DNA from: a virus
Reading direction: 5' to 3' (one strand)
Length of the DNA: 64,000 nt
Virus record (IMG/VR): IMGVR_UViG_3300020048_003770
Coordinates: 1-64,000 of that record
In this document: positions 1-64,000 of the stretch, in pieces
Layout of the letters: every line of letters starts with the position of its first letter
Numbering within the stretch: the stretch's first letter is position 1
Position numbers and translations under genes: made by a program
Notes under the pieces: model-generated
Seen by the model: the letters and a program-made list of their open reading frames with translations, nothing else
Databases searched by the model: none
Told to the model about the DNA's origin: nothing

Positions 1-116
1 TCCCTGATGCCCTGCAAGCTTAGATTTCATGTTTTTCATGATTTCAAGCAACTATCAGGGCGGTCTCATAAGCCGCTGCGTAAGCCTAGGGAGTTCGAAT
101 CTCCCTCCCGCCACCA
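1..116 (+). tRNA. 3' part of an atypical tRNA, probably CAT anticodon (Met/Ile2), with a large hairpin insertion; 5' end outside window
   Basis: T arm GGGAG-TTCGAAT-CTCCC, acceptor strand TCCCGCC-A-CCA, arm GCGGT-CTCATA-GCCGC, extra hairpin CCCTGAT...ATCAGGG. Confidence 0.5.
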
Positions 117-126
117 TTTTTCTATA

Positions 127-7796: not shown

Positions 7797-7889
7797 ATGT
7801 TTTTCATCAATCAACAGAATAATCAACAGAACCAAAATTCTGAGAGCAATCTTGGAATGGTGGTACAGATTATTCTGCTTGCAGTTTAA
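7797..7889 (+). CDS. Asn/Gln-rich attenuator leader peptide MFFINQQNNQQNQNSESNLGMVVQIILLAV
   Basis: AAGGAG RBS; codons 5-14 all Asn/Gln; followed by terminator and tRNA-Asn, -Gln, -Asn. Confidence 0.88.
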   Translation: MFFINQQNNQQNQNSESNLGMVVQIILLAV

Positions 7890-7908
7890 TTCTCATACCT
7901 TCCATCCC

Positions 7909-7945
7909 AAGAGGCTCTCAAATCAACCTGAGAGCCTCTTTTTTT
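7909..7945 (+). terminator. Attenuator terminator 1
   Basis: AAGAGGCTCTCA/TGAGAGCCTCTT plus U tract; 5' arm can instead pair with leader 7841-7860. Confidence 0.9.
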
Positions 7946-7968
7946 GTTCTTTTATATAGTTTTTAAAT

Positions 7969-8042
7969 TCCCATATAGTGTAATGGTAGCACGAAATACT
8001 GTTAATATTTTAGTAATGGTCCGAATCCATTTTTGGGAACTA
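7969..8042 (+). tRNA. tRNA-Asn(GTT)
   Basis: Anticodon arm AAATA-CTGTTAA-TATTT; acceptor TCCCATA/TTTGGGA. Confidence 0.8.
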
Positions 8043-8050
8043 ATTTAAAT

Positions 8051-8124
8051 TGTCTCTTGATGTAAAGGTAGCATTCAGAACTTTGACTTCTGTCGTGAAC
8101 GTTCAAATCGTTCAGAGACAACCA
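8051..8124 (+). tRNA. tRNA-Gln(TTG)
   Basis: Acceptor TGTCTCT/AGAGACA, arm CAGAA-CTTTGAC-TTCTG, CCA. Confidence 0.9.
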
Positions 8125-8142
8125 CTTATGAAAATTTTTAAT

Positions 8143-8217
8143 TCCTTAGTAGCTCAATAGTAGAGCGTCGGTCTGTTACGCCGAGGGTTGTAGGGGCGGA
8201 GCCTACCTAAGGAGCCA
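8143..8217 (+). tRNA. tRNA-Asn(GTT)
   Basis: Acceptor TCCTTAG/CTAAGGA, arm TCGGT-CTGTTAC-GCCGA, CCA; unusual T loop. Confidence 0.85.
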
Positions 8218-18754: not shown

Positions 18755-18844
18755 ATGAAAATGAACATAAATACAATCCATATCCCAGAACATATTGAGA
18801 TTCCCGAACCTATTGGTAAGGGTTATGGATGTGTTATGTCGTAA
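18755..18844 (+). CDS. Ile/His/Pro/Glu-rich attenuator leader peptide MKMNINTIHIPEHIEIPEPIGKGYGCVMS
   Basis: Codons 8-20 only I,H,P,E; followed by terminator and tRNA-His, -Ile, -Glu, -Pro. Confidence 0.88.
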   Translation: MKMNINTIHIPEHIEIPEPIGKGYGCVMS

Positions 18845-18866
18845 TTAGTAACATATCAATTAACAG

Positions 18867-18901
18867 AAACCCTTGCCGATAAAAGTCAGCAAGGGTTTTT
18901 T
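18867..18901 (+). terminator. Attenuator terminator 2
   Basis: AAACCCTTGC/GCAAGGGTTT plus U tract; 5' arm pairs alternatively with leader TTGGTAAGGGTT 18813-18824. Confidence 0.9.
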
Positions 18902-19080
18902 ATTGGAAAAATTAGGTTTAAAAATATGAAAAAGAAGATAAAAGATGGTAGCACTGAATGTTTTGGATTGTTAAGATTGTTAGTCTCAAGCGGTAAAGAA
19001 AGATTTGCGAAAACGACTATGAAAGAGATGCGTGAATATGGTAAAAAAATGGCGAAATGTATAGAGAGGATTTAAGTAAT

Positions 19081-19172
19081 GGTAATAGTGATGGAATTGG
19101 CTAAACATGCTAGACTGTGAATCTAGTGAGTTATAAAAACTCTTGCGGGTTCGAGCCCCGTCTATTACCCCA
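19081..19172 (+). tRNA. tRNA-His(GTG) with long variable arm
   Basis: G-1, acceptor GTAATAG/CTATTAC, C73, arm CTAGA-CTGTGAA-TCTAG, variable stem GAGT...ACTC. Confidence 0.88.
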
Positions 19173-19186
19173 ATTTTAGGAGAATT

Positions 19187-19546
19187 ATGAAAGACATGGA
19201 AAGAAAAGAAATCAGAGTTGAATTGGGAGACGTAGACTCATCTTATTTTGACGGAACTATAGACGATGTTATTGCGAGATTGAAGGCGTTAAAAGAAAAG
19301 TATTCAGATTATTCTATCTTAGACATTAGTTCTGAAGTCGGTTATGGATATTATGATAGCACTTTTGTTAAGTTTTCGTTAAGTGGAATAAGAATGGAAA
19401 CCGATGCAGAGTTTGAAAAAAGAACAGATGATTTGAAAAAGGCTAAGGAGGCGGCGAAGAAAAGGAAAATAACGATGTCTCAAAGGCAAGAGGAAAAAGA
19501 TAGGAAAGAATTCGAGAGACTGAAAGCTAAATACAAAGAGGAATAA
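19187..19546 (+). CDS. hypothetical protein
   Basis: AGGAG RBS; lies inside tRNA cluster. Confidence 0.65.
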   Translation: MKDMERKEIRVELGDVDSSYFDGTIDDVIARLKALKEKYSDYSILDISSEVGYGYYDSTFVKFSLSGIRMETDAEFEKRTDDLKKAKEAAKKRKITMSQRQEEKDRKEFERLKAKYKEE

Positions 19547-19548
19547 TT

Positions 19549-19740
19549 ATGAAAAAGTTTTGGAAAGAGTTTTGGATGGAAGATGTTAGAGAAATCACTG
19601 TTAATGCAACGATATTGATTGAAAATGCATTAAAAGAATTCAATATTGTGTTGACAGAGAAAGAAGAAGACGATATACATAATAAGATATGGGAAGTTTT
19701 AGAAAAAAGAAGTAATGGAGATTATCAAAATCATATGTGA
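19549..19740 (+). CDS. hypothetical protein
   Basis: 63-aa ORF with RBS. Confidence 0.5.
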   Translation: MKKFWKEFWMEDVREITVNATILIENALKEFNIVLTEKEEDDIHNKIWEVLEKRSNGDYQNHM

Positions 19741-19753
19741 ATGATATAAAAAC

Positions 19754-19828
19754 GGGCACTTCTTCTAAAGGTTAAGAAAATCGTCTGATACGCGATCAAT
19801 AATGGTTCGATTCCATTAGTGCCTACCA
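19754..19828 (+). tRNA. tRNA-Ile(GAT)
   Basis: Acceptor GGGCACT/AGTGCCT, arm ATCGT-CTGATAC-GCGAT, CCA. Confidence 0.88.
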
Positions 19829-19837
19829 ATTAAAAAT

Positions 19838-19915
19838 GTCGATGTAGACAAAATGGTTAAAGTCACCAGGCTTTCATCCTGGAATTTGCGGGTTCGAGTC
19901 CCGTCATCGATGCCA
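19838..19915 (+). tRNA. tRNA-Glu(TTC)
   Basis: Acceptor GTCGATG/CATCGAT, arm CCAGG-CTTTCAT-CCTGG, CCA. Confidence 0.92.
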
Positions 19916-19940
19916 GTTTTGAAAAAGTTTTAAAATTTAT

Positions 19941-20015
19941 TAGGGATGAGGTGTAATGGTTTGCACATCTCGTTTGGGTCGAGAGGGAGGAGTTCGAGTC
20001 TCACATCCTTAACCA
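19941..20015 (+). tRNA. tRNA-Pro(TGG)
   Basis: Arm TCTCG-TTTGGGT-CGAGA, acceptor AGGGATG/CATCCTT, CCA. Confidence 0.82.
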
Positions 20016-26107: not shown

Positions 26108-26191
26108 ATGAACACAAAACAGAACATATTTAGCTTTTTTAGCTTTAGACACCCTTCATGGACTTTGAAGGTTGGTTATGTTATGTTTTAA
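26108..26191 (+). CDS. Phe(/Ser)-rich attenuator leader peptide MNTKQNIFSFFSFRHPSWTLKVGYVMF
   Basis: FSFFSF run; followed by terminator and tRNA-Phe. Confidence 0.85.
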   Translation: MNTKQNIFSFFSFRHPSWTLKVGYVMF

Positions 26192-26213
26192 TATAATTAA
26201 AGCCAATTTAAAA

Positions 26214-26247
26214 AGAGCCCATGAATTAAGTTTCGTGGGCTTTTTTT
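26214..26247 (+). terminator. Attenuator terminator 3
   Basis: AGCCCATGAA/TTCGTGGGCT plus U tract; 5' arm pairs alternatively with TTCATGGACTTT 26155-26166. Confidence 0.88.
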
Positions 26248-26255
26248 GTTTTATT

Positions 26256-26331
26256 GGAGGTTGCGTAGGTATGGTTATTACGTCGAACTGAAAATTCGAA
26301 GAATCCGGTCCGATTCCGGAAGCCTCCACCA
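26256..26331 (+). tRNA. tRNA-Phe(GAA)
   Basis: Acceptor GGAGGTT/AGCCTCC, arm TCGAA-CTGAAAA-TTCGA, CCA. Confidence 0.88.
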
Positions 26332-46609: not shown

Positions 46610-46702
46610 ATGAATATGAACAAGCAAATAATAGGTATAGGAATAGCGGGAGCCTGCGGCGGAGCTGCAAGGCTACGGACTTTCTATGTCTGTTTATGCT
46701 AA
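46610..46702 (+). CDS. Ile(ATA)/Gly/Ala-rich attenuator leader peptide MNMNKQIIGIGIAGACGGAARLRTFYVCLC
   Basis: Codons 7-20 are I,G,A except one C; all four Ile are ATA; downstream tRNA-Ala, -Gly and a TAT-anticodon RNA. Confidence 0.87.
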   Translation: MNMNKQIIGIGIAGACGGAARLRTFYVCLC

Positions 46703-46724
46703 ATGATATAACAGATTAAAAAAT

Positions 46725-46760
46725 AGAGAGTCCGATAAACTAATGGTTTGTCGGACTTTT
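46725..46760 (+). terminator. Attenuator terminator 4
   Basis: AGAGTCCGATAAAC/GTTTGTCGGACTTT; 5' arm pairs alternatively with CGGACTTTCTAT 46676-46687. Confidence 0.85.
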
Positions 46761-46970
46761 GCTTTATAAGGAGAAAATGGGTAGGAAAAAGAGTCAAAAA
46801 AGGAAAAACACGAATGTCGTAAAGAACGAAATGGTTTTTCTTAGGTGCTTTGAATTGCTGGGAGCATAAACGGTTCTGTCTTCTCTAAAACAAAGGCGGA
46901 ACCGAATGAAACAGGAAGGAAACAATTTTATGAATATCAAACGCAAGGACTGTATAAATGTGAAAGATGG

Positions 46971-47213
46971 ATGTCTGGTAAACTCGATCCGTACTTTTTT
47001 GTTCTTAAACATGGTAAACATCAATTTGATTTAATAACTAGCGAATATGAGCAGAGATACGAAAACGGTTTGGATTGGGATGGATTATATCAGCTATGGA
47101 TGGATTGGAAAGGAGATAGATGGTTGTTGAGGCACGTTTTGAAATGGATGAAAAATTTGCCAGATTGGATAGATAAGGAAAGTGAAGAAATAGATTTGAA
47201 TATGGGGGCGTAG
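46971..47213 (+). CDS. hypothetical protein
   Basis: 80-aa ORF ending inside tRNA-Ala 5' end. Confidence 0.5.
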   Translation: MSGKLDPYFFVLKHGKHQFDLITSEYEQRYENGLDWDGLYQLWMDWKGDRWLLRHVLKWMKNLPDWIDKESEEIDLNMGA

Positions 47214-47277
47214 CTTAGTTGGCTAAAGCGTCTGATTTGCATTCAGAAGATCGTCGGTTCGACCCCGGTCGCCTCCA
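47204..47277 (+). tRNA. tRNA-Ala(TGC)
   Basis: GGGGGCG/CGCCTCC with G3:U70, arm TCTGA-TTTGCAT-TCAGA. Confidence 0.92.
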
Positions 47278-47371
47278 AGTTGACAAGCAGATTACTTCCA
47301 CGTAGTGTCAACTGGTAACTAAGAAATTAGGCTAAAATCTGCAAGTAACAAAAGAGAATAGAAAGGATAAT

Positions 47372-47620
47372 ATGAAGAAAGTTAATACATGTTTAACGGT
47401 ATATGATATGTTGGGACAGGCGTTGAACCATGAATGCAGCGGATCTAAAAGGTTTTCGCCTGATAATACCAAAGAGGATGTCGGAATAAAATGTCTGGAA
47501 TGTGACGACTCATTCAAGATATCCATTCGTAGACTGCGTAATACTATGAGAGATCCAAGATTGACTGAATTAGTTAAACAATATAAATACATGGATTTGT
47601 TGAAGAAGTTTGTTATTTAA
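47372..47620 (+). CDS. hypothetical protein
   Basis: RBS, CLEC. Confidence 0.5.
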   Translation: MKKVNTCLTVYDMLGQALNHECSGSKRFSPDNTKEDVGIKCLECDDSFKISIRRLRNTMRDPRLTELVKQYKYMDLLKKFVI

Positions 47621-47626
47621 AAATAT

Positions 47627-47701
47627 GCATCTTAGGTGTTTATGGACACACGCTAGGCTTCCAACCTTGAGTAATGGGATCGTTACCCATAAGATGCTCC
47701 A
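47627..47701 (+). tRNA. tRNA-Gly(TCC)
   Basis: GCATCTT/AAGATGC-T-CCA, loop CTTCCAA. Confidence 0.85.
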
Positions 47702-54058: not shown

Positions 54059-54192
54059 GGGGAAGTAGCCAAATGGAAAGGCACTATTATTCGGAAATAG
54101 CAAACAGCGATTATTACTTAAATTGTTTAATAGCAATTTCTTATCTAAACGCTTACAAACTTTTGGGGGTTCGATTCCCTCCTTCCCCACCA
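54059..54192 (+). ncRNA. tRNA-like/Y-like RNA 1 (about 70-nt module in variable arm)
   Basis: GGGGAAG/CTTCCCC-A-CCA, D arm, T arm, module AGCG...ACTT-stem-CTTAT...CGCT-TACAAAC. Confidence 0.8.
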
Positions 54193-60129: not shown

Positions 60130-60209
60130 TTATTTAAAATAGTTCTTGATTTTAAAACAGAACAAGCCCTTGACATACTCCCCATGAATAAATTCAGGGG
60201 ATTCTAGGC

Positions 60210-61382
60210 TCAAGCGAGGGCAGCTTGACTCACGTCAAGTCTGACACCCTCTCGCCAGCAGGATGATGTCCCATCCTTTAAATCATTTAAACCTCTCTTA
60301 ACTATATTTATAGCTGCGTTCATATCTCTATTATGAGAAGTCAAACACTCAGGACAAACCCACTCTCTATCTTTTTGAGTTAATTCATTGTTCTTATATC
60401 CACAGGAACTGCATGTTTTCGTACTGGCAAACCATTTATCAATATGGTGAATAATTTTTCCATATTCCAAAGCTTTATTTTCCAATATTCCCATGAAATT
60501 AGAAAATCCAAGATCATTTATCTTCTTCCCATGTTCTTTTTTCATTGAACTGATATCCAAAGTTTCAAAAAACATAACATCATAAGTTTCACATAATTGT
60601 TTTGCAAGTTTGAAATGATAATCTAATCTTTTATTTGCAACTTTCTTATGTAATTTAGCCAATTGATGTTTTGCTTGTTGGTAATTATTTGAACCTTCAG
60701 TCTTTCTTGATAATGTCTTGTTCGCTTTGGATATCTTGTTTCTATTTTGTTTGAAAAATAGTGGAGCTTTTATTTTGGTTCCATCATCTTTAACTAGAAA
60801 ATCCGTACATCCGAAATCAAAGCCTGCGGTTTCACCCGTCATGGAAATTAATTCAGAATCATTTTCTAATTCGCAAACAATATAAACATACCAATCCTCT
60901 GATTTATCTTTTTTAAGTGTAATGCATTTTATTTCTCCTTTTGTTTCTCTTGATTTCCAGTATTTGTAAATTCTGTTATTTATTTTGATTTGGTTGAACG
61001 GCAATATTTTGTATCCATCTTGTTTGAAGGTAATGCTTGCATAGGATCTAACTTTTTTGAATGATGGAGGGCTTACTTTTCTAGTTTTGTTTTTCTTTTT
61101 GCAATTATCAAAGAATGCCTTGTATCCTTTTTGGATTCTATCTGTAATTTCTTGAATAGCTTGAGCGTTTACTTTTTTCCAGAATGAATATTTTTCTAAT
61201 TTTTTCAGTTTTGTGATATGTTTTTGGAGTTGAAATTTATTGAGGGATTTTCCGAATAGTTTGTAATATCTATAGTGGAGAGCGATGCAGTGGTTATAGA
61301 TATTGCCTGCTATTTTGGTTTGTTCATTCAGGAATTTGTTTTTCTTTGAATGATATAATTTATATTTGAATGTCTTTATCAT
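60210..61382 (-). CDS. tnpB: TnpB RNA-guided endonuclease
   Basis: KTFKYKL HTH, GFDFG, FFETL, HNRDMNAAINI, Zn ribbon. Confidence 0.94.
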   Translation of the reverse strand: MIKTFKYKLYHSKKNKFLNEQTKIAGNIYNHCIALHYRYYKLFGKSLNKFQLQKHITKLKKLEKYSFWKKVNAQAIQEITDRIQKGYKAFFDNCKKKNKTRKVSPPSFKKVRSYASITFKQDGYKILPFNQIKINNRIYKYWKSRETKGEIKCITLKKDKSEDWYVYIVCELENDSELISMTGETAGFDFGCTDFLVKDDGTKIKAPLFFKQNRNKISKANKTLSRKTEGSNNYQQAKHQLAKLHKKVANKRLDYHFKLAKQLCETYDVMFFETLDISSMKKEHGKKINDLGFSNFMGILENKALEYGKIIHHIDKWFASTKTCSSCGYKNNELTQKDREWVCPECLTSHNRDMNAAINIVKRGLNDLKDGTSSCWREGVRLDVSQAALA

Positions 61383-61539
61383 TATCTTTTAGAACCTTGA
61401 GGTATTTTTTCAGGAACATTTTAAATGCGCCTGAAATATTTATGGCGTAATTATTTTTAAGTTCTTCCATGGCGTCGAAGTCTTCTTGATTTAATCTGAA
61501 GGCATATGGGTATTGTTTTTTAACATAATTATTTTTCAT
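61360..61539 (-). CDS. Small ribbon-helix-helix-like protein (59 aa)
   Basis: MKNNYVKKQYPYAFRLNQEDFDAMEELKNNYAINISGAFKMFL..., overlaps tnpB start. Confidence 0.55.
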   Translation of the reverse strand: MKNNYVKKQYPYAFRLNQEDFDAMEELKNNYAINISGAFKMFLKKYLKVLKDNDKDIQI

Positions 61540-61682
61540 GTTTATTTATTCAATACTTTTCAAATAATTCCTTTATTTGTAAATGAGAAAATAATTTAAA
61601 ATAGTTCTTGATTATTAAAAGGAGTTATGTATAATGATTAGGAACATTAAATAGATTCGAGATTTGGAGAAGGAATAAAATT

Positions 61683-61760
61683 ATGTATATTAAAACGAAA
61701 ACAGTAGAAAAAGCAACGGTATTCAAAAAAACCGTTATGGGCTTATTCTGTTTTGTTTAA
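61683..61760 (+). CDS. Lys/Thr/Val-rich attenuator leader peptide MYIKTKTVEKATVFKKTVMGLFCFV
   Basis: 12 of codons 4-18 are K,T,V; followed by terminator and tRNA-Lys, -Val, -Thr, -Thr. Confidence 0.88.
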   Translation: MYIKTKTVEKATVFKKTVMGLFCFV

Positions 61761-61777
61761 GTACAAAATAGATTTTT

Positions 61778-61810
61778 AAAAGCCCGTAAGTGTTACTTGC
61801 GGGCTTTTTT
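61778..61810 (+). terminator. Attenuator terminator 5
   Basis: AAAAGCCCGTAAGT/ACTTGCGGGCTTTT; 5' arm pairs alternatively with TTATGGGCTT 61735-61744. Confidence 0.9.
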
Positions 61811-61847
61811 GTTTTATTTAATGGTAATTTGGGGGATAGAATAAAAT

Positions 61848-61922
61848 GGAAGTGTAGTTCAACGGTAGAACAACGGTCTTTTAAACCGTGAAATGATGGT
61901 TCGATTCCATCCACTTCTACCA
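61848..61922 (+). tRNA. tRNA-Lys(TTT)
   Basis: Arm ACGGT-CTTTTAA-ACCGT, CCA. Confidence 0.92.
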
Positions 61923-61964
61923 TTTTTAAAGGAAACGATAAGAAGGAATATGATATAATATAAT

Positions 61965-62038
61965 GGGCGATTAGTTCAATGGTAGAACTCTGTCTTTACA
62001 CGGCAGTTACGGGAGTTCGATTCTCTCATCGCCTACCA
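61965..62038 (+). tRNA. tRNA-Val(TAC)
   Basis: Arm CTGTC-TTTACAC-GGCAG, CCA. Confidence 0.92.
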
Positions 62039-62297
62039 TTTTAAAAAAGAAAGGGAGTTGTAATGAAAATATTAAATGTAGATACTAAGATCCACGAAGC
62101 GATAGGAATGACTATATTGACGAAAGAAGATGTCGCTAGCAGAAGATTGGGAGAACCTATGGAGATATGGCCGAAAGACTGTTCATTTAATCCATCGGGA
62201 ATCTCTTTGGAAGAAGCTAGAGGAGCAATGAGGAAAATGTAAAGAACATAGAGGGGAGAAGGTTGTAGTTGAAGAAATTAAAACATTATTTAAAAAC

Positions 62298-62373
62298 GCC
62301 GGTTTAGCTCAGTTGGTAGAGCAATAGTTTTGTAAACTATAGGTCGTCGGATCGTACCCGTCAACCGGCTCCA
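62298..62373 (+). tRNA. tRNA-Thr(TGT)
   Basis: GCCGGTT/AACCGGC, loop TTTGTAA, CCA. Confidence 0.92.
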
Positions 62374-62382
62374 TTTTTTAAT

Positions 62383-62458
62383 GCCACCATAGCTCAGTTG
62401 GTAGAGCAATAGTTTCGTAAACTTTAGGTCGCAGGTTCGATGCTTGCTGGTGGCTCCA
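62383..62458 (+). tRNA. tRNA-Thr(CGT)
   Basis: GCCACCA/TGGTGGC, loop TTCGTAA, CCA. Confidence 0.9.
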
Positions 62459-62581
62459 TAAAAGAAAATAACCGTATAAGATAAAAGATTTTAAAACGAT
62501 GGTATGGCGGAAAATGGTTATGCGCCTTACTTATTTTTATATTTATAAAGGATTTTTATTTTGTTTATAGAATAAATATTT

Positions 62582-63193
62582 ATGAATGAAATAAAAATAG
62601 AAAATATTCAAAAATATTATAATGACGGACATTCTTGGAGAGAAGTAATTGAAGAATTCCATACGGGCTGGAAAACGATACAGAAACTAGTTAGAAGTGG
62701 GAAGTTGATTTCTAGAAGTTTATCTGAGAGTACTAAGCTGGCATATAAAATTGGGAAAATAGTAAAAGTGCATACAGAAGAAAGTAAGAAGCATCTATCG
62801 GCAATTGCAAAGAAAAGGGGATTGGGTGGCGATAGACCGAGTAAGCATATTGAATATAACGGCTTTAAATTATGTTCGACATATGAATTGAGAGTTGCAA
62901 AAATTTTAGATAAAAGTGAAATAAAATGGATAAAACCAAAAACTACGTTTGGGTGGACTGATTTAAATAACGAAAAACACACATACCATCCGGACTTTTT
63001 TTTGCCGGATTTTAATGTCTATTTAGATCCGAAAAACAGTTATTGCATAGAAAGAGATAAAGAAAAAATTAAAAGGGTTAGAATGGAGAATATGGTTAGC
63101 GTTTTTATTATTCCGATAGAAGTTATAAAAAAATGGGAAAATAAAATAATAATAAGCATACAAGATATAAATCAAGATACGGAAGGTTTGTAG
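62582..63193 (+). CDS. PD-(D/E)xK homing-type endonuclease
   Basis: STYE, YHPDFFL..FNVYLDPK; N-terminal HTH and HTEESK repeat. Confidence 0.8.
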   Translation: MNEIKIENIQKYYNDGHSWREVIEEFHTGWKTIQKLVRSGKLISRSLSESTKLAYKIGKIVKVHTEESKKHLSAIAKKRGLGGDRPSKHIEYNGFKLCSTYELRVAKILDKSEIKWIKPKTTFGWTDLNNEKHTYHPDFFLPDFNVYLDPKNSYCIERDKEKIKRVRMENMVSVFIIPIEVIKKWENKIIISIQDINQDTEGL

Positions 63194-63220
63194 TTCTAAG
63201 GTGAAGGACATATGTCAAAA

Positions 63221-63264
63221 TTTGTAATAAGAACTATGGGGTTTCGATACCTCTGCCGGCTCCA
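63221..63264 (+). pseudogene. 3' half of a tRNA-Thr(TGT)-like gene; possible 5' half at 62498-62532
   Basis: TTTGTAA, T arm, TGCCGGC-T-CCA. Confidence 0.45.
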
Positions 63265-63270
63265 TTTTTT

Positions 63271-63390
63271 GCCAAAGATGCTTAGGAGTTCGATTCTCCT
63301 TCGTTCCATTTGACGGGACGGATGGTTCACAAAGTGCTACGGTGACACGGTTCGCTACTGTATCGGGTTCGATTCCCGACTTTGGCTCCA
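63271..63390 (+). ncRNA. Expanded tRNA-like RNA with two T-arm-like hairpins
   Basis: GCCAAAG/CTTTGGC-T-CCA; AGGAG-TTCGATT-CTCCT and TCGGG-TTCGATT-CCCGA. Confidence 0.6.
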
Positions 63391-63591
63391 TTTTTAGAGG
63401 AATGATATGAATATAAAAAACGAGATAGAACTTGATGCCGCCCTTGAACACATAAATGATAATTGGCATTTATTAGATATTCCAGATGATGCCGATTCTG
63501 AATTGGTTACTAAACGCGATAATCTTCTTAAATTAATTTATGATGCTGAAGAGTACGAGAAGAAATATGTTTTTGATTAATATAAGTGCAT

Positions 63592-63666
63592 GGATTGCAA
63601 GCTTTTATGGTGAAGCAATAGATTCTTAATCTTTGGAACGGGGTTCAAGTCCCTGGAGATCTACCA
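63592..63666 (+). tRNA. tRNA-Lys(CTT)
   Basis: Loop TTCTTAA, T loop TTCAAGT, CCA; imperfect stems. Confidence 0.72.
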
Positions 63667-64000
63667 ATTTTTATCTTGATTTTCTATTCCTCTTATTGTA
63701 TAATATAACATCGATTAGAATAATTATGGAAAGGGAAATTATGGAATTAAAATGTTTTGAAGATATTGATGAAATGATGACGATACCAGCAGGGCATTTT
63801 GTAAACCATGTTGATTTAGATTGTGATACTCCATATTGTCAAGTGTGTCGAGAAAGTGACATGAAAGATTTTGACGATAAGATATTCGTTCCGAAAGCAC
63901 TGGCGTATTATTTGCGGACTCATTTTTGTGGAAGTGAAAGAATGCATAAATCTCTTAAGGAAGACGGAAGAAGATCTTGTCAGAATGAAATAAAAGAAGC

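Follow-up and report, generated by a model that had tools for sequence, protein, structure and literature searches.

Near the end of the window, which is the first 64 kb (64,000 nucleotides, 34% G+C over the record) of the 161,288-bp viral record IMGVR_UViG_3300020048_003770, a group of tRNA genes for Lys, Val and Thr is preceded by a short open reading frame (ORF) rich in codons for the same three amino acids. We propose, with a probability of roughly 0.7, that this element, called cassette 5 here, is a ribosome-mediated (leader-peptide) transcription attenuator, which controls the phage's own tRNA-Lys/Val/Thr operon and serves as a sensor of decoding speed. The proposal is built on the anatomy of the element, the match between its leader codons and its tRNA genes, its conservation among relatives, and the covariation of its stems.

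Cassette 5 spans 61608-62458 on the plus strand, with promoter, Shine-Dalgarno site, leader ORF, terminator and tRNA genes in that order. Its parts, and the ORF that follows it, are these:

61608-61635, plus strand: sigma-70-type promoter, TTGATT, 16-nt spacer, TATAAT (10 of 12 consensus matches)
61666-61674, plus strand: Shine-Dalgarno region GGAGAAGGA, with its AAGGA core 8 nt 5′ of the ATG
61683-61760, plus strand: leader ORF of 25 codons, MYIKTKTVEKATVFKKTVMGLFCFV and a stop, with the Lys/Thr/Val sensor run at codons 4-18
61711-61744, plus strand: hairpin 1:2, AAGCAACGGT with ACCGTT..GCTT, within the sensor run (minimum free energy (MFE) fold)
61735-61789, plus strand: antiterminator, outer stem 61735-44/61780-89 and inner stem 61747-56/61763-72
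61778-61816, plus strand: intrinsic terminator, 14-bp stem (61778-61808), 3-nt loop and T-run, −19.5 kcal/mol
61848-61922, plus strand: tRNA-Lys(UUU) (ARAGORN; Rfam 73.1 bits)
61965-62038, plus strand: tRNA-Val(UAC) (ARAGORN; Rfam 63 bits)
62063-62242, plus strand: 59-amino-acid ORF between tRNA-Val and tRNA-Thr, kept in relatives
62298-62373, plus strand: tRNA-Thr(UGU) (ARAGORN; Rfam 63.8 bits)
62383-62458, plus strand: tRNA-Thr(CGU) (ARAGORN; Rfam 61.3 bits)
62582-63193: 203-amino-acid ORF 3′ of cassette 5

The leader at 61683-61760 reads ATG TAT ATT AAA ACG AAA ACA GTA GAA AAA GCA ACG GTA TTC AAA AAA ACC GTT ATG GGC TTA TTC TGT TTT GTT TAA. A preliminary description of this DNA had reported the 25-codon ORF, the tRNA set and two complementary pairs of segments, and all of them are present; its codon counts are right for AAA (five), ACG (two), ACA, ACC (one each) and GTA (two), while GTT occurs twice, not once. 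It had also read one of the two pairs as an extension of the antiterminator. Both stems are real: TTATGGGCTT (61735-44) pairs with AAGCCCGTAA (61780-89), TCTGTTTTGT (61747-56) pairs with ACAAAATAGA (61763-72), and together they make a single bulged hairpin of −21.5 kcal/mol (z = −5.95), as stable as which none of 200 dinucleotide shuffles was. The loop of this hairpin contains the leader stop codon (61758-60). The 3′ arm of the antiterminator doubles as the 5′ arm of the terminator, which makes the two structures mutually exclusive. The terminator, which is the sole terminator-like site on the plus strand within 61000-64000, stands 40 nt before tRNA-Lys. Hairpin 1:2, possibly a pause hairpin to judge from the predicted fold, takes in part of the 5′ arm of the antiterminator. 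The promoter belongs to a recurrent TTGATT-N17-TATAAT class with 15 members on the plus strand. It is to be noted that the 59-amino-acid ORF, for which a Pfam search gave no family, would be induced together with the tRNAs of the cassette.

How unusual is the composition of the leader? The amino-acid frequencies of the genome's own long ORFs served as background. Of the 24 codons that follow the start, 13 specify Lys, Thr or Val (P = 1.6e-4), and within codons 4-18 the share is 12 of 15 (P = 7e-7). At codons 4-13 all eight Lys/Thr/Val codons are exact Watson-Crick partners of the four anticodons in the cassette (P ~0.004 under genome codon usage, for a stretch chosen post hoc). The match between codons and anticodons claimed in the preliminary description is thus exact there in the window genome, and it is confined to this genome: orthologous leaders, described below, also use ACC, ACT, GTT, GTC and AAG. 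Because of these further codons and the post hoc choice of the stretch, the exact match is a hint at most, and amino-acid families are the better level at which to describe the sensing.

Evidence for the correspondence at that level also comes from the rest of the genome. The whole record was scanned mechanically for short ORFs that end immediately 5′ of a strong terminator, and five such cassettes were found ahead of tRNA genes:

7797-8217, plus strand: cassette 1, leader MFFINQQNNQQNQN... (N/Q), terminator 7909-7940, then tRNA-Asn, -Gln and -Asn
18755-20011, plus strand: cassette 2, leader containing IHIPEHIEIPEPI, terminator 18868-18897, then tRNA-His, two ORFs, tRNA-Ile, -Glu and -Pro(UGG)
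26108-26331, plus strand: cassette 3, leader containing IFSFFSF, terminator 26212-26245, then tRNA-Phe
46610-47701, plus strand: cassette 4, leader containing IIGIGIAGACGGAA, terminator 46729-46757, then an ORF, tRNA-Ala, an ORF and tRNA-Gly
61608-62458, plus strand: cassette 5, leader with the K/T/V motif, then tRNA-Lys, -Val, -Thr and -Thr

Together the five cover 12 amino acids with one design. If each of the leaders is assigned to each of the tRNA sets, the true pairing is the single best of all 120 assignments, with 53 matching codons; the runner-up has 44, and the mean is 20.8. The tRNA-Pro(UGG) gene at 19942-20011 makes the His/Ile/Glu/Pro match of cassette 2 complete; it was called neither by ARAGORN, which finds 18 other tRNA genes in the window, nor by the whole-window Rfam run, and scores 37.3 bits in a local Rfam search. 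The same scan found no codon-matched leader at three tRNA clusters of cultured phages (Synechococcus S-WAM1, Vibrio 1.244.A and Alishewanella Slickus01). The scanner therefore does not return such matches wherever it is applied, nor is the design universal.

Relatives were obtained as metagenomic contigs by using two neighbouring proteins as anchors; one of these contigs is 367,912 bp long and was examined around the two anchor genes. Scans of viral contigs with the 59-amino-acid ORF, a tRNA-Lys pattern, and the 791- and 638-amino-acid neighbour proteins returned no relatives. The phage collection searched holds no cultured relative, and when the topoisomerase-like and RecD-like proteins were compared with cultured phages by tblastn, all matches were distant (at most 39% identity). 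A metagenome scan with an alignment of the Apyc1-like protein encoded downstream returned 80 loci, among which only close relatives have tRNA cassettes. Four distinct orthologous leaders, at the loci L014, L012, L013 and L017, retain the Lys/Thr/Val run (KTKTVKTVKVVKTT):

L014: leader MYIKTKTVKTVKVVKTTATGLLCFV, then Lys, Val and Thr tRNAs
L012/L018 and L013/L019: leader MYYKTKTVKTVKVVKTTATGLFCFV (or ...FI), then Val, Thr and Lys tRNAs
L017: leader MYYKTKTVKTVKVVKTTATGFFCF, then Val, Thr and Lys tRNAs; the neighbouring protein is only 57% identical

In these leaders 15-16 of the 23-24 codons are for Lys, Thr or Val, with 14 such codons in a row (P ~6e-7); the order of tRNA genes differs from that of the window in L012, L013 and L017. 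Start, frame and stop are retained without insertions or deletions in all four. The substitutions relative to the window mostly interchange Lys, Thr and Val or turn other residues into one of these, a pattern which fits selection on which tRNAs get sampled rather than on the sequence of the peptide. The promoter hexamers are invariant in the four orthologues and AAGGAAT is present in all of them, and the 59-amino-acid ORF has counterparts with 71-75% identity at the same position in L012 and L014. In L012, L013 and L017 the first tRNA starts only 17-20 nt 3′ of the terminator, and this leaves no space for a second promoter.

The two alternative structures are likewise retained. In all orthologues 13-14 of the 14 terminator pairs are maintained, with two compensatory pairs in L012 and L013, and in L014, L012 and L013 so are 19-20 of the 20 antiterminator pairs. 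In the antiterminator, a double change between leader and terminator arm has turned one T-A pair into C-G, and another pair, T-G, has become C-G. In L017 the outer stem is maintained and the inner stem has been rebuilt in a different register. Pairs of hairpin 1:2 are not conserved column by column; the relatives carry another hairpin at this place (GGTAGTC/GACTGCT), which the folds suggest may be a pause signal.

Orthologues exist for other cassettes as well. A distant Asn/Gln cassette (L016/L020) has the leader MKVLFNQNNQQNNSSFT and a terminator unrelated to that of cassette 1, and the 3′ end of this leader, TTTTACTTGAGCG, is complementary to the new terminator arm, CGCTTAAGTAAAA. The Phe cassette has an orthologue in L007/L009, and the His/Ile/Glu/Pro cassette has orthologues too. 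A variant of cassette 2 in L007, with a different terminator, was considered as a further example; its antiterminator candidate is only a short G-run facing CCCC, and it is not counted.

How would cassette 5 work? Promoter, ribosome-binding site, short ORF, regulatory codon run, and a terminator between leader and genes are all present; in silico there is also an antiterminator that has one strand in common with the terminator and that a ribosome completing the leader would mask. From this arrangement we infer translation of the leader, stalling in it, and regulated read-through. Transcription would start from the TTGATT/TATAAT promoter, and a ribosome would begin to translate the 25 codons of the leader. 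Fast decoding of Lys, Thr and Val codons would bring the ribosome to codons 15-25 and the stop, where it would cover the 5′ arm and the inner stem of the antiterminator; the terminator at 61778-61808 would then form, and RNA polymerase would halt 40 nt before tRNA-Lys. A shortage of charged tRNA-Lys, -Thr or -Val would make the ribosome stall at codons 4-14 and leave 61735-44 free to pair with 61780-89, so that no terminator forms and the tRNAs are transcribed together with the small ORF. With more tRNA the leader would be read faster and termination would resume: supply on demand, switched off once it suffices. Since the products are the very tRNAs that read the sensor codons, such a circuit would be a self-limiting negative feedback.

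A model of the truncated transcript gives this scheme some quantitative form. The RNA was cut at the end of the terminator 5′ arm, and a ribosome footprint from −15 to +13 nt around the A-site codon was masked at each codon in turn. With the A site on codons 2-14 the probability that the terminator 5′ arm is engaged in the antiterminator is 0.64-0.72; the value falls to 0.44 at codon 15 and stays at about 0.21-0.25 across codons 16-25. Accordingly, in the model a stall on the early Lys/Thr/Val codons allows antitermination, which is prevented once the ribosome moves further along. At the stop codon the ribosome lies within the antiterminator loop, and there the model permits the outer stem (0.5), which is probably unrealistic on steric grounds. 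A step like that of the window appears in three orthologues (L014, L012 and L017), and cassettes 2 and 3 step down at the ends of their own sensor runs; the drop is weaker in cassette 1, and cassette 4 shows no step.

Several points weigh against the attenuator as we describe it. When the complete leader with ribosome masks is folded at equilibrium, the terminator forms in every masked state (P ~0.95), and there is no discrimination among them. Dominance of the terminator at equilibrium is expected of attenuators, in which the decision is taken during transcription, and the model therefore hinges on co-transcriptional kinetics. It also presupposes that transcription and translation are coupled in the host. 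A ribosome stalled on codons 15-18 (K K T V), the last part of the sensor run, would mask the antiterminator. The truncated RNA adopts the antiterminator already when free of ribosomes (0.64), and hairpin 1:2 co-exists with the antiterminator in the truncated MFE structure, so that it is no clear competitor, unlike the corresponding hairpin in trp; because of this co-existence, untranslated transcripts may read through rather than terminate as they do in trp. A TAGAAT hexamer (TATAAT in L014) lies 7 nt 5′ of tRNA-Lys and could be a weak constitutive promoter. Shine-Dalgarno sites are weak or missing in cassettes 2-4. Finally, in the orthologous leaders the codons ACC, GTT, GTC and AAG are read by the phage anticodons through wobble alone.

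Can the arrangement be explained in other ways? The preliminary description had itself gone one step beyond an attenuator whose sensor codons match its tRNAs. That much is borne out by anatomy, statistics and relatives; the further step, taken on the ground that PrrC and PARIS target tRNA-Lys, in which the element is a counter-defence switch that senses cleavage of host tRNA-Lys (and Thr, Val) by anticodon nucleases such as PrrC or AriB of PARIS and answers with nuclease-resistant phage tRNAs, finds no support, as the same design serves Asn/Gln, His/Ile/Glu/Pro, Phe and Ala/Gly. We regard it as unlikely, although, being a special case of attenuation, it is a possible use of the circuit. Phage tRNAs are reported to evade retron and other defences (PMC11555353), and the circuit would react to a fall in decodable tRNA of whatever origin. 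An Apyc1-like gene, of an anti-Pycsar family, comes next downstream, and the genome encodes a Tpt1-type RNA 2′-phosphotransferase. However, the circuit would respond equally to host shut-off or to the demand of codon usage, and with one design repeated across five cassettes and 12 amino acids, nothing singles out Lys. The anticodon loop of the phage tRNA-Lys is CUUUUAA, the ordinary loop of a tRNA-Lys, and nothing in its sequence indicates resistance to cleavage. No anticodon-nuclease context was found, and no RtcB or Rnl2-type RNA ligase in the 161-kb record.

Even less probable, in our opinion, is an attenuator that senses amino-acid starvation or the general status of translation for the sake of proteins, namely those of the 59- and 203-amino-acid ORFs, with the tRNAs as passengers. 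The conserved 59-amino-acid ORF does lie within the operon, cassettes 2 and 4 likewise carry ORFs, and since no terminator was found before 64000, the ORFs 3′ of cassette 5 may be co-transcribed. But the ORFs have no biosynthetic family, cassettes 1 and 3 gate tRNAs alone, and in five cassettes and their orthologues the amino acids of the leader track the tRNA set, not the function of any protein.

There is also a slight chance that the element regulates nothing, being a leaky terminator or a processing signal which keeps the tRNAs at a constant low level, while the short ORF is untranslated or incidental. The equilibrium fold, with its terminator in every state, would suit such an element, and the three cultured-phage clusters that lack a leader of this kind indicate that phage tRNAs do not require one. 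It leaves unexplained, however, the codon enrichment, the best-of-120 pairing, the retained frame, the interchange of Lys, Thr and Val, and the complementarity of leader and terminator maintained across unrelated terminator sequences. As to a translation-independent switch that binds tRNA directly in the manner of a T-box, the choice between terminator and antiterminator ahead of translation-related genes recalls one, but we give it hardly any weight, for the leader of ~100 nt has neither specifier loop nor T-box sequence, 61560-63700 gives no match to the Rfam T-box model (RF00230) even at E up to 1, and a Shine-Dalgarno site and a conserved in-frame ORF are present.

Returning to leader-peptide attenuation, we are inclined, on balance, to a wider proposal: that large phages run a modular tRNA-on-demand regulon, in which a separate, codon-matched leader-peptide attenuator gates each block of tRNA genes, decoding is gauged per codon family, and tRNAs depleted by host shut-off, codon-usage mismatch or tRNA-cleaving defences are replaced. 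How phage tRNA genes are controlled is largely unknown. A switch that senses demand would explain how a phage can carry many tRNA genes without a constant cost, and would connect phage tRNAs to the depletion of host tRNAs, whether by defence or by shut-off. If the proposal is true, these would be the first tRNA genes under ribosome-mediated attenuation, and leader-peptide attenuation would extend to a class of targets whose product feeds back on the sensor itself. In addition, the cassettes give a sequence signature for annotating tRNA operons of uncultured phages and, being small, modular and different in specificity, could serve as codon-specific reporters of decoding speed.

Some features around the cassettes deserve mention for their own sake. 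Just 5′ of cassette 5, in the region 60136-61613, lies a TnpB element (IS605 OrfB, 390 amino acids, minus strand, 60210-61382). The element is flanked by two copies of the promoter −35 region, AAAATAGTTCTTGATT, at 60136-60151 and 61598-61613. Just beyond the element end, the minus-strand stretch 60154-60169 (GGGCTTGTTCTGTTTT) has 15 of its 16 bases in common with the leader at 61739-61754, and it also resembles the terminator 3′ arm with its T-run. In the 368-kb relative (L006, 8460-9960), a TnpB element stands in place of the Phe leader, with the terminator and the last ~11 bases of tRNA-Phe left, and this is a second instance of such an element located at an attenuator. Judging from these sequences, the element may home to attenuator or terminator sequences.

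Downstream, the gene following the tRNA region encodes an MBL-fold protein (64027-64812 of the record) that matches Pfam PF23023 (Anti-Pycsar Apyc1). It is labelled ribonuclease BN by some sources, and adjoins the Lys/Val/Thr cassette in relatives too. The Tpt1/KptA-type RNA 2′-phosphotransferase is encoded at 76085-76588 of the record (PF01885, E = 1e-49). At 63195-63400, 3′ of the 203-amino-acid ORF, three stretches resemble tRNA 3′ halves (T-arm and acceptor end), two of them finishing in GGCTCCA as do the tRNA-Thr genes; no tRNA model matches the three, and they may be remnants or tRNA-like RNAs. Elsewhere in the window, a 131-nt tRNA-like Rfam match (54059-54189, 46.9 bits), absent from the ARAGORN calls, lies near tRNA-Leu(UAA) in a region with two consensus promoters (53985 and 54216). 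The contig starts within a tRNA cluster, with the 3′ part of a tRNA at ~60-117 (window 1-120) followed by tRNA-Asp, -Trp and -Arg, and any leader for this block would sit outside the record.

How does cassette 5 compare with systems already known? Leader-peptide attenuators are known to control genes for amino-acid biosynthesis and transport, and some genes for aminoacyl-tRNA synthetases. With the enterobacterial amino-acid leaders (thrL for Thr/Ile, ilvL of ilvGMEDA for Ile/Leu/Val, trpL, hisL, pheL and leuL), it shares a promoter, a short leader in which codons for several amino acids form a run, and mutually exclusive antiterminator and terminator hairpins between which the position of the ribosome would decide. 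It differs from them in that the genes under control would be phage tRNA genes, not those of biosynthetic enzymes, so that the product would act on the sensor directly; it is a phage element present in five copies with different codon sets; and its hairpin 1:2 is no clear competitor. In Rfam the cassette 5 leader belongs to no leader family at gathering score, and Thr_leader gives a full-length match below threshold (28.2 bits against a cut-off of 55).

Leader-peptide attenuators also stand ahead of synthetase genes. The leader of E. coli pheST is one, and others precede leuS, alaS, trpS and thrS of Streptomyces lividans (PMC8079986). Common to these and cassette 5 would be ribosome-mediated attenuation that matches the translation machinery to how much charged tRNA is available. 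Theirs acts on a cellular charging enzyme, whereas here it would act on the tRNA itself, in a virus, and with several amino acids per leader. T-box riboswitches also take a terminator/antiterminator decision that reports the state of particular tRNAs, but they bind uncharged tRNA directly and without translation, and cassette 5 has no T-box features.

As for the function of phage tRNAs, the tRNA-Lys of T5 is reported to neutralise PARIS (PMC11464382), and phage tRNAs to evade retron effectors (PMC11555353). The shared point is that phage tRNA-Lys and others replace host tRNAs lost in infection. The difference is that those studies concern the tRNA molecules, and the passages of PMC11464382 consulted do not mention demand-sensing control. 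By term search, a 2024 opinion piece on phage tRNAs (PMC11025619) does not contain the word promoter, contains 'regulat' once, and showed no passage on how the tRNA genes are controlled. Leader-peptide control of tRNA genes, in phage or cell, is undescribed in a full-text literature search that covered papers outside subscription-only access. Relative to the literature found, the combination in cassette 5 is that of a known mechanism, leader-peptide attenuation, with an unexpected target, the tRNA genes.

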